The notes beneath the pieces are model-generated. The model had not been told where the DNA came from and ran no database searches. It was given only the letters and a program-made list of their open reading frames with translations. From the NCBI GenBank assembly GCA_965116795.1, contig OZ220716.1, positions 64,001 to 128,000 on the forward strand: DNA of 64,000 nt. Direction: 5' to 3'. Below, piece after piece: positions 10,448-11,807 of this stretch. A program made the position numbers and the translations under genes. The stretch is from Gammaproteobacteria bacterium. GTDB taxonomy: Bacteria; Pseudomonadota; Gammaproteobacteria; JAJFKG01. Within the stretch, counting starts at the first letter, position 1. Each line of letters opens with the position of its first letter.

Positions 10448-11185
10448 ATGCGGAAAGTACTATATAAGATATTTAACAATGCTGAGTTGATTCTGGCGTT
10501 TGTTGCTATTTTCTCACTAAGCTTCAATGTATACTTGTTTATGAAACAAAATAAGCAAACTGAAGAGACAGCATTGGCAGTTGAAGAAAAGTATTATCAG
10601 CTGAGTAAGGCAATGCAAGATTTTTCTATAAAAAAATCGATGTCAGCAAATCTACATGGCGATATTATTGACTTAAAATTCCTTAACTATGAACTGTTTT
10701 CTCTCTGCGCTGACAAAAAACGCTACTCACCTAGTGAGTTTAAAAGTAATTTGCGTAGAATTAACACACAACGTTTCCGTGCTATTAGAGAACTTGTTAA
10801 AAGTAGTCAAGGCAAGAGCATTTTTGTTCCGTTATTTAAAGAAAAAACGTATGCTGATATTCAGTGTAGGACTAAATGGAACATAGCACTTTATGAAAAA
10901 GTACACAGCACCGACCAGTGTCAAATTATACAAGTCAGTGATATCTCTTTTTGTAAAGAAAATAAAACAAAGTATGCAGACTTTTGTATGATTAAAGATA
11001 AACAAAAACTAACACTACAGAACTTCGATAAGTTATTCGACCAATGGCATCAATGTCAATCATTTGAGTTAAATCAACAAGTAAAACAAGCTGAAATTAA
11101 GATAGACCAACTTCTTTCAGAAGACACGACTACAAATAACGGCAAAATATCTATTAAATTATTACCAGGAATGAATACATTTTAA
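10448..11185 (+). CDS. Hypothetical single-pass membrane-anchored protein with six Cys
   Basis: RBS AGGAG; N-terminal hydrophobic helix LILAFVAIFSLSFNVYLF; 245 aa. Confidence 0.75.
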   Translation: MRKVLYKIFNNAELILAFVAIFSLSFNVYLFMKQNKQTEETALAVEEKYYQLSKAMQDFSIKKSMSANLHGDIIDLKFLNYELFSLCADKKRYSPSEFKSNLRRINTQRFRAIRELVKSSQGKSIFVPLFKEKTYADIQCRTKWNIALYEKVHSTDQCQIIQVSDISFCKENKTKYADFCMIKDKQKLTLQNFDKLFDQWHQCQSFELNQQVKQAEIKIDQLLSEDTTTNNGKISIKLLPGMNTF

Positions 11186-11247
11186 TGACCATGGCACAAT
11201 GCAACAGATGCTCTTTTTTTGCGAAGCCATTTTTTTAGGATCTTCAT
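11182..11247 (-). CDS. Uncalled 21-aa peptide MKILKKWLRKKRASVALCHGH
   Basis: AAGGAG RBS at 11257-11262, 9 nt before ATG; directly downstream of and co-oriented with the GRDP-like gene. Confidence 0.6.
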   Translation of the reverse strand: MKILKKWLRKKRASVALCHGH

Positions 11248-11303
11248 TGTTTAATACTCCTTAATTCGTCAAGCCAAATACTATGGTATAGTTAATATAT
11301 TTT

Positions 11304-11807
11304 TTAATATGTATCATCTGCAAAAGCAGAAAATTTATTTGCAATAAAATTACGTAACTTATCTAGCATTCTTTCAAAAAAGCCTTTGCCATGTACTTTA
11401 TAAATATAATTACCAAATTCTTTCTTATATAGAAATTGCGTCTCTTCAAATGCTGCTTTTAATGTTGATAAAGATTCGGCTGTTGCCAAATGTGGGTCAT
11501 GATCAAGGTAGCTATCTTCAAGCTCAGGAAAGATTAATTTACAAAACTTTCGATATTGTTTTGTTTGCAGTATATGTGCATGCCATACTTCATCAATATC
11601 TTTTGATGGCGGCAATTTTTTAGTTGGATACAATTTACAAAGATAAAGGTAATTACGATACTGTGCGATTGCTGCAGTCGCTTCTCTAGGCTTCCAACCT
11701 TCGGTCAAGACTAACCGTTCAAAGGTTGAATTTAAGTCATATGTATGAATCTTTTTACATACATCGCGAAGTTTAGCAGATACAGGTAATTCTTGGTCAA
11801 TAACCAT
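11304..11807 (-). CDS. Glycine-rich-domain (GRDP/DUF1399-like) protein
   Basis: AIAQYRNYLYL...PPSKDIDEVWHAHILQTKQYRKFC...YLDHDP signature; likely ATG at 11807 with GGGG RBS (track starts at 11912). Confidence 0.75.
   Translation of the reverse strand: MVIDQELPVSAKLRDVCKKIHTYDLNSTFERLVLTEGWKPREATAAIAQYRNYLYLCKLYPTKKLPPSKDIDEVWHAHILQTKQYRKFCKLIFPELEDSYLDHDPHLATAESLSTLKAAFEETQFLYKKEFGNYIYKVHGKGFFERMLDKLRNFIANKFSAFADDTY

Follow-up and report, generated by a model that had tools for sequence, protein, structure and literature searches.

The locus described here raises the question of what a gene for a 21-residue peptide does between the gene of a GRDP-like protein and that of a membrane protein transcribed towards it. 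The locus belongs to a window of 64,000 nucleotides, by which we mean the whole stretch of DNA that was analysed, and a first, sequence-only reading had proposed that the peptide supplies in trans, as a RiPP-like substrate or as a metal-binding partner, the C-terminal tail that many bacterial relatives of the GRDP-like protein carry themselves. The features on which the argument relies are collected in Table 1.

Table 1. Features around the peptide gene (positions in the window).
Feature	Position	Strand	Remarks
tRNA-Met	7746-7822		Beside the low-GC islet
Low-GC islet	8000..12000	.	30-34% GC against 41% for the genome; holds all five genes, 8281 to 11807
Response regulator	8281..9285	+	Central receiver domain; accessory, mostly unlinked to modules elsewhere
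Histidine kinase	9341..10387	+	Lies just ahead of the partner gene; accessory and not kept across modules
Convergent partner gene	10448..11185	+	Single N-terminal membrane helix and predicted four-helix bundle; two family-invariant Cys
21-aa precursor peptide gene	11182..11247	-	ORF, Shine-Dalgarno (SD) sequence and family of 54 distinct members
SD sequence TAAGGAG	11257..11263	-	9 nt ahead of the peptide ATG
Tail-less GRDP-like/UCP032817-like protein	11304..11807	-	167 aa; PF07173 and PF27765; structure model

The peptide MKILKKWLRKKRASVALCHGH is the product of a minus-strand ORF (11247..11182) in which a basic and amphipathic N-terminus leads into an A-x-x-A-x-C segment (RASVALC) and a final HGH. 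The elements that had been described for this gene, namely the 21-aa ORF, an AAGGAG-type ribosome-binding site at 9-nt spacing and a stop codon overlapping that of the convergent gene, are all present: TAAGGAG is complementary to the 3' end of the 16S rRNA of the host genome, and the TTAA at 11182-11185 contains the TAA of both genes, a 4-nt overlap. Three other DNA runs span the stretch, with no difference listed. Short SD-led ORFs are common, with 1171 ATG ORFs of 15-27 aa in the genome, and this one could be a random frame or the by-product of a terminator where two convergent genes meet. Only 11 of the 1171 meet the family rule, which was drawn up from these same peptides, and 10 of the 11 lie inside four modules of the kind described below. 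The chance explanation is at odds with the 54 relatives, which show third-position bias and use all four Ala codons, and with the absence of notable RNA structure (z 0.86) and of any Rfam match. Promoter and terminator scans gave results at chance level. The peptide itself matched no Pfam or NCBIfam family. We regard the chance explanation as largely refuted already and extremely improbable, and the peptide gene as virtually certain to be real.

Relatives collected from 46 genome loci, 80 metagenome loci and genome searches amount to 54 distinct SD-led peptides of 17-26 aa, with the consensus MKxLxxxFxKKKAxxAxCx and often arranged in tandem arrays. The conservation of the Ala at -2, the Cys, the charge and the start is circular, because the selection rule demanded an A-x-C, a basic charge and an MK, MR, MT, MV or ME start, allowing one to eight residues after the Cys. 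Outside the rule, an Ala at -5 appears in 47 of the 54 peptides, and exactly one residue follows the Cys in 44, where up to eight were allowed. The residues flanking the Cys vary widely, with 19 different ones at -1 and 14 at +1. Differences at codon positions 1, 2 and 3 number 48, 47 and 103, and pN/pS is 0.32 over 18 disjoint peptide pairs, the choice of pairs at an amino-acid identity of at least 55% biasing pN downward. The hydrophobic moment of residues 1-11 (0.54 against 0.36 for shuffled sequences) bears out the amphipathic character that had been ascribed to the basic N-terminus. A looser rule later added about 12 members (66 in total); the strict one had wrongly labelled two distant homologues (L086, L128) and overlooked the longer-tailed members of L025, L027 and L067.

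This family also changes the weight to be given to the terminal CHGH, which had been proposed as a possible conserved CH motif. Since His follows the Cys in only two of the 54 peptides, CHGH is particular to the window copy; the conserved part is the Cys, and as judged from the family alignment the His motif is incidental. A His-based metal-binding role thus finds no support, with the 44 peptides that end one residue past the Cys pointing the same way.

Arrays reach five peptides, varying at -1 and +1, beside one partner gene. The host genome encodes four GRDP-like enzymes, four partners and 10 intact peptides, all clustered, so that each of the four GRDP-like genes has a related peptide nearby, and one module combines two intact peptide copies and a shortened one with an array of five more some 4 kb away. 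Degenerate copies comprise the shortened peptide (genome C1:324257-324298), a Cys-less peptide (L209:2694-2750) and a partner gene split over two frames (L031:4905-5963). At L063:4524-5366 the ORF of a SAM methyltransferase runs in frame into a family peptide, the homologue at L016 being separate. In seven loci (L018, L021, L024, L028, L031, L040 and L161) the interval separating enzyme from peptide contains a second very short SD-led ORF, 19-32 aa long, whose hydrophobic product is probably a single membrane helix and a possible fourth component. An intermediate precursor of 32 aa, with an amphipathic leader and a multi-Cys core, lies 17 nt past the enzyme in L172, and precursor variants of 25-44 aa occur upstream of the enzyme in L162, L163 and L165.

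The link between peptide and GRDP-like protein was assessed with ORFs chosen without use of the motif. In the 1.3 kb downstream of 35 high-scoring clade loci, 28 of 30 MK-starting SD-led ORFs have an A-x-C near the end, against none of the 19 short ORFs at 47 tailed loci. The expectation that short ORFs downstream of tail-less homologues would share a CH motif therefore held as far as analogous peptides with A-x-C are concerned (28/30) and failed for the CH motif itself (2/54). Among the 41 best-scoring enzymes, taken after 11 near-duplicates had been dropped from 152 domains, 29 have a peptide by the strict rule, three are truncated, one is labelled tailed and eight have none; the eight include three longer-tailed members, one with an NHLP precursor and one whose peptides lie elsewhere in the genome. 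No peptide was found near the clade enzymes of L066, L071 and L029, nor in G002 and G015, in which the enzyme is present. A quick enzyme tree, with many open forks, placed the true peptide-linked enzymes in one group of 70 rows (SH-aLRT 93), together with further tail-less forms and four enzymes that have a tail. The class-wide sample was a weak held-out test of the linkage: five loci passed, four of them duplicates of earlier ones, leaving L161 as the only new case.

Homologues outside this group extend the comparison. The window enzyme has no Cys/Gly tail and many distant homologues do, which agrees with the earlier statement that bacterial members of the family often carry their own tail. 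In these tailed forms the first tail Cys mostly lies some 57-80 residues past the motif Asp; the residue at -2 of this Cys is Ala in 14 of 68 cases against a background of 9%, and A, S, G or T in 44 of the 68, related sequences not being independent in either count. Two fused tails end like the free peptides (AHADCK in L047, ASAASCAG in L045). Separate Cys precursors of 44-57 aa occur in six loci of other tail-less subclades, and a chlamydia-containing subclade has separate long-leader Cys precursors, of which all five tested pass the NHLP RiPP-leader model TIGR03793. Separate precursors in sister subclades together with tails ending like peptides make a substrate held either in cis or in trans a family-wide pattern. 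The homologue comparison thus supports the view that the peptide stands in for the Cys tail carried in cis by distant homologues, and the peptide is very probably the substrate of the neighbouring GRDP-like protein. The earlier idea of a tail supplied in trans survives in this form, given the peptide family, its linkage to the enzyme and the cis tails of homologues, and loses its His/CH metal-binding version.

It could also be envisaged, in line with the second option of the first reading, that the peptide is a non-covalent partner whose Cys stays unmodified and serves to complete or gate the metal site in the GRDP-like protein, as a cysteine switch or for metal hand-off. The one invariant Cys, the metallothionein-like character of many fused tails and the placing of the first tail Cys, at about 57-80 residues past the motif Asp and so within reach of the site, would all suit such a role. 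A single Cys is nevertheless a poor chelator and His occurs in only 2 of the 54 peptides, the sister precursors bear NHLP RiPP leaders, and both the periplasmic partner and the multi-copy variable arrays would be left unaccounted for, so that we consider this explanation improbable.

The GRDP-like protein passes the Pfam model PF07173 (E 1.3e-5; 26.3 bits against a cut-off of 22.7), which is its only Pfam match, and the precomputed domain PF27765 (UCP032817-like) is placed on it as well as on all 30 hits. A GTG at 11831 is a possible alternative to the ATG at 11807 and would give 175 aa. The residues of the plausible metal site that had been read into this DxxWHxH protein are present and conserved: PSKDIDEVWHAH and YLDHDP are both found, and in 141 domains D72 is conserved in 139, H76 in 135, H103 in 138 and Y85 in all 141, D72 being part of the search pattern, H76 also for most rows, and H103 and Y85 lying outside it. 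D72 and H76 stand at i and i+4 of one predicted helix, and we infer from conservation and model that D72, H76 and H103 would form a metal triad. The structure model is all-helical (pLDDT 85). No match to its fold was obtained with Foldseek (best E 0.51), VIA (best Z 4.0) or a PDB sequence profile (best E 0.14), which is no proof of a new fold. For a comparison with 2-His-1-carboxylate or Zn metalloenzyme folds, the conserved residues stand beside a best Z of 4.0. At the C-terminus of the peptide-linked enzymes lies a helix that is both basic and amphipathic (moment 0.71, charge +4.8, against 0.50 and -0.4 for tailed forms) and may place enzyme and precursor together at the membrane.

Several departures from this scheme were observed within the enzyme family. 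Some extra paralogues and one fusion do not have H76 (the fusion has no H103 either) and keep H78, a residue required by the homologue filter. They include tandem GRDP-like paralogues at L065:4368-4841 and L073:1000-1470, and at L063:5637-6473 the fusion, a degenerate GRDP domain joined to a membrane partner; to judge by their residues, these proteins are possible peptide-binding pseudo-enzymes. The enzyme copy of G002 has neither D72 nor H76. Ubiquitin- or SUMO-like domains fused to a GRDP-like domain end in Gly-Cys instead of Gly-Gly (L116:242-1171, L127:397-1140, L098:365-1273), a hint that the reaction may work on a terminal Cys.

The convergent gene had been mentioned only for its overlapping stop codon and was missed as a third part of the system; 33 of 36 partner genes face a peptide gene. 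A peptide lies within 1 kb of 34 of these 36 genes, 22 of which came from enzyme loci, and 33 of the 34 pairs are convergent (3'-to-3'). A separate search gave 11 further partner genes, eight of them with a family peptide at the 3' end; one of the eight is at a known locus, one has a peptide with Gly at -2, and around four of them no enzyme lies within 1.5 kb. The enzyme is encoded elsewhere in all four genomes of these enzyme-less pairs or their kin (G322 twice, G414, G005). Orphan partner genes occur in L210 and L211. The host genome has exactly four partner genes, one per module, and among 61 genomes sampled around the host the partner was found in three, all with enzyme and peptide; the unpublished genome G041 enters only the genome tallies. 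The convergent gene is consequently no bystander and is the tightest partner of the peptide, and peptide, GRDP-like and convergent membrane genes form a conserved three-part module.

The convergent arrangement could also fit unmodified membrane-active peptides, similar to type I toxins or phenol-soluble modulins, that are held in check by the convergent gene or by an antisense transcript, with the GRDP-like protein as a loose companion. Besides the convergent layout in 33 of 34 cases, the moment of residues 1-11 (0.54 against 0.36) and the four peptide-partner pairs without an enzyme nearby speak in its favour, although the genomes of the latter encode the enzyme elsewhere. This possibility appears rather improbable, given that the A-x-C is common to fused tails and unrelated leaders, and that the convergent gene encodes a conserved protein in which two Cys are invariant, and so more than an antisense RNA.

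Members of the partner family differ strongly from one another (16-17% mean identity) and share one membrane helix and the two invariant Cys, with no Pfam family common to them. None of the members examined has more than one predicted membrane helix, and no output or signalling domain was found in them. The model of the window partner (pLDDT 79) shows the membrane helix continuing into a four-helix bundle. The leading natural fold matches are chemoreceptor and kinase ligand-binding domains with Z of 10.8-9.9 (8bsa at Z 10.8, rmsd 3.8 and 151 aligned residues, followed by 9m08, 6s18, 2d4u and 1lih), tied with designed bundles; these scores are below the value of about 13 expected by chance for helical bundles, and the second-ranking match is a de novo bundle. 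No Foldseek match of the partner reached an E below 0.001, an Atlas search gave only weak unnamed matches (0.79 or lower), and no longer protein containing the partner domain appeared among 7991 candidates, which is weak evidence.

Two unnamed families were seen next to partner genes. One, of 124-134 aa and with no Pfam match, lies directly upstream of the partner on the same strand (L042:6196-6597, L018:5552-5947, L026:5713-6084, L034:5706-6107, L209:902-1300) and is, from its position, a candidate cytoplasmic output partner. The other, probably exported and containing Cys, adjoins the partner in four modules: L149 and L150 (genome C1:321665-322753 and 137933-139030), L034:1726-2313 and L021:5244-5543.

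The islet of the window also contains a histidine kinase and a response regulator, the latter of which we take to be LqsR-like. Compared with a multi-helix paralogue (genome C1:2146796-2148202), the kinase has kept no membrane helices but the last two; it shares 56% identity with this paralogue over 308 aa from paralogue residue 152, the first ~130 residues being missing, and may be either repurposed or decaying. Of 39 homologues of the regulator, only 2 have a partner gene within 3 kb, and the regulator is absent from 8 of 23 genomes searched. Signalling genes as a class (receiver, kinase or LuxR-type) occur at 7 of 23 loci, compared with 5.3% of 8.4-kb windows drawn at random from the host genome, an enrichment whose background is one genome and whose related loci are not independent.

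Among 84 neighbours scanned, of 122 listed, there was no transporter or protease common to the loci. Recurrent though non-core neighbours are SAM methyltransferases (five loci), luciferase-like oxygenases and GNATs, and MATE pumps were present at three of the scanned loci. A neighbouring MFS gene was discarded as exporter, since it falls beyond the low-GC islet and is not shared by the loci, and the host genome has a single C39 match, borderline and unlinked. In the related loci L017, L018 and L021 a thiopurine S-methyltransferase gene, candidate for an S-methylating tailoring step, is divergent from the enzyme gene. The fourth module (L151, genome C1:2402216-2407731) adjoins a small cluster of genes that read as PLP-dependent-enzyme-like, acyl-carrier-protein-like and acyl-CoA-dehydrogenase-like.

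Taken together, these data lead us to favour, with a probability of roughly 0.4, a split RiPP-like system in which the predicted metal site would modify the peptide Cys and the partner would bind the exported product as the receptor of a signal. The broader proposition, Cys modification plus cognate binding of the product, be it signal or toxin, we consider likely. The basic amphipathic N-terminus would act as leader and hold the precursor at the inner membrane beside the amphipathic C-terminal helix of the enzyme. D72, H76 and H103 would bind one metal, and the enzyme would read A-x-C and act on the Cys, oxidative chemistry with iron being more likely than zinc hydrolysis. A very small x-C-x or C-x product would be released and exported by unlinked machinery, after which the periplasmic four-helix bundle would bind it and signal to a separate kinase or regulator; the receiving pair in the window is perhaps the sensor-shortened kinase and the regulator encoded upstream of the partner. 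In fused homologues, leader and Cys steps would take place on their own tails.

The signalling part of this proposal is favoured by the ligand-binding domains that lead the fold list of the partner, by the regulators in 7 of 23 loci and by the sensor-shortened kinase just upstream of the window partner. Weighing on the other side are a partner without output domain, the 2 of 39 regulator homologues near a partner, the absence of a transporter or protease common to the loci, and arrays that vary at -1 and +1, which would fit a toxin cocktail equally well. The same precursor and maturase might indeed make an antibacterial microcin-like compound, with the partner as immunity protein. The immunity protein of colicin M is convergent, single-pass, disulfide-bearing and periplasmic, and the convergent single-pass periplasmic partner with its likely disulfide resembles it; the predicted four-helix fold and the tiny peptide with its maturase differ from colicin M and microcin pairs. 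As many as five variant peptides arrayed in tandem beside one partner gene, a partner family of great divergence (16-17% mean identity) and without output domain, the orphan partners of L210 and L211, the location in a low-GC islet, and methyltransferases, luciferase-like oxygenases and MATE pumps that recur nearby would all be consistent with such a function. We nonetheless judge it somewhat unlikely, with four-helix ligand-binding domains at the top of the fold list, regulators recurring near the loci, no dedicated exporter in them, and a core of only one to three residues after the leader in most members.

Regarding known systems, the window enzyme shares its domain and DxxWHxH motif with GRDP-like/DUF1399 (PF07173) and UCP032817-like (PF27765) proteins and with plant GRDP1 and GRDP2, and differs from them in being stand-alone and tail-less, with a separate peptide and a membrane partner. 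A cotton GRDP-like protein has reportedly been found to activate a rhamnose synthase, and plant DUF1399/GRDP-like domains are said to influence seed size and ovule development. Plant members have a Gly-rich C-terminal domain, and in the accessible text the plant papers give phenotypes and an interaction, with no catalytic role found for the domain (PMC13001069). Within the literature accessible to our search, no description of a peptide-enzyme-partner system of this type was found.

Of the general marks of a RiPP, the system shows a ribosomal precursor with conserved leader and variable core beside a conserved partner gene; a clustered protease or exporter was not found among the 84 neighbours scanned. 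In borosins (PMC8429565), members of a single enzyme family may be joined to their substrate or act on a precursor encoded apart, an arrangement similar to that of the GRDP-like family. The enzyme of the window system is unrelated, its core is centred on Cys and its precursors are of only 17-26 aa; the system was rejected as a borosin in view of the absence of an alpha-N-methyltransferase domain, PF07173 being the only match of the enzyme. With the NHLP-leader RiPPs (TIGR03793; accessible text of PMC2887384) it has in common multi-copy precursors with variable cores, and sister GRDP-like enzymes lie beside NHLP precursors. Unlike these, the window peptide lacks an NHLP leader and a Gly-Gly site, and the loci scanned showed neither a cyclodehydratase nor a LanM or export cassette. 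NHLP membership was dismissed as well, none of the 28 of 54 peptides long enough to be scanned matching an NCBIfam family.

The proposed Cys-directed metal chemistry would be a likeness to the substrates of MNIO (DUF692) enzymes, such as bufferins, TIGR04222 proteins and the pearlin TglA, on which TglHI carries out Cys-directed chemistry. A TIGR04222 protein in L056 contains a GRDP-like domain, which, to go by this architecture, would offer an in-cis alternative for tail modification. In the accessible text of PMC12452194, TIGR04222 tails are treated as possible MNIO substrates, many such genes having no MNIO, and its main text does not mention GRDP. The window system was rejected as an MNIO system: the 84 neighbours contain none, and the single copy of the host genome is not linked to a module and lies far away with a bufferin-type precursor of its own. 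That copy belongs to a bufferin-type operon (genome C1:1976228-1978756), whose other members are presumably a DoxX-like membrane gene, a signal-peptide precursor and a DUF2063-like gene.

In the Agr system (AgrD/AgrB/AgrC) a precursor with an amphipathic leader and an acidic tail gives a Cys-based peptide signal with about four ring residues after the Cys. An amphipathic N-terminal leader, a Cys peptide and nearby two-component genes are found here too, but in the window system the Cys is penultimate, which leaves no thiolactone ring of the usual size, the host is Gram-negative and the four-helix partner is stand-alone. AgrD was set aside as an assignment, one residue following the Cys in 44 of 54 peptides and AgrB not being found in the 97.7% complete genome. 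In comparison with Tar/Tsr-type four-helix-bundle sensors, the partner members examined showed neither a second membrane helix nor a cytoplasmic output domain. With the Legionella Lqs system (accessible text of PMC3376566) the islet has in common a regulator whose receiver is central and for which no output domain is known, and a kinase derived from a multi-helix sensor; it has no LqsA-type synthase, its kinase has lost most sensor helices, and the link exists at few modules. Three further assignments of the peptide were discarded: a lipoprotein signal peptide (Lys and Arg dominate -9 to -6, and G, A or S stands at -1 in 8 of 54), a CaaX prenylation substrate (the Cys is second from the end in 44 of 54, and the CHGH of the window is non-aliphatic) and a leader-peptide attenuator (no same-strand gene follows the peptide, and there is no RNA structure).

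What sets a RiPP class is its modifying enzyme, and here neither enzyme, peptide nor partner falls into a characterised family: the enzyme lacks a structural match, and peptide and partner lack a profile. The newness of the system would then lie at the level of the class, as the layout itself, with leader, core and a fused or split arrangement, is that of known RiPPs. Tentatively, as a possibility that we hold for less than an even one, GRDP-like/UCP032817 proteins, with a fold unmatched in the PDB, might constitute an undescribed metal-dependent, Cys-modifying RiPP class that makes Gram-negative quorum signals of di- or tripeptide size sensed through a four-helix receptor. Such a class would span Legionella- and Coxiella-like Gammaproteobacteria with membrane-bound precursors of some 20 residues, and would extend in cis to TIGR04222 Cys/Gly tails, to Gly-Cys ubiquitin fusions and perhaps to plant GRDPs. 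DUF1399/GRDP-like domains range from bacteria to plants, and a 167-aa protein with a synthesisable 21-aa peptide offers a simple test substrate. If the product proves to be a signal, the module would represent a ribosomal-peptide signalling system in Gram-negative bacteria.
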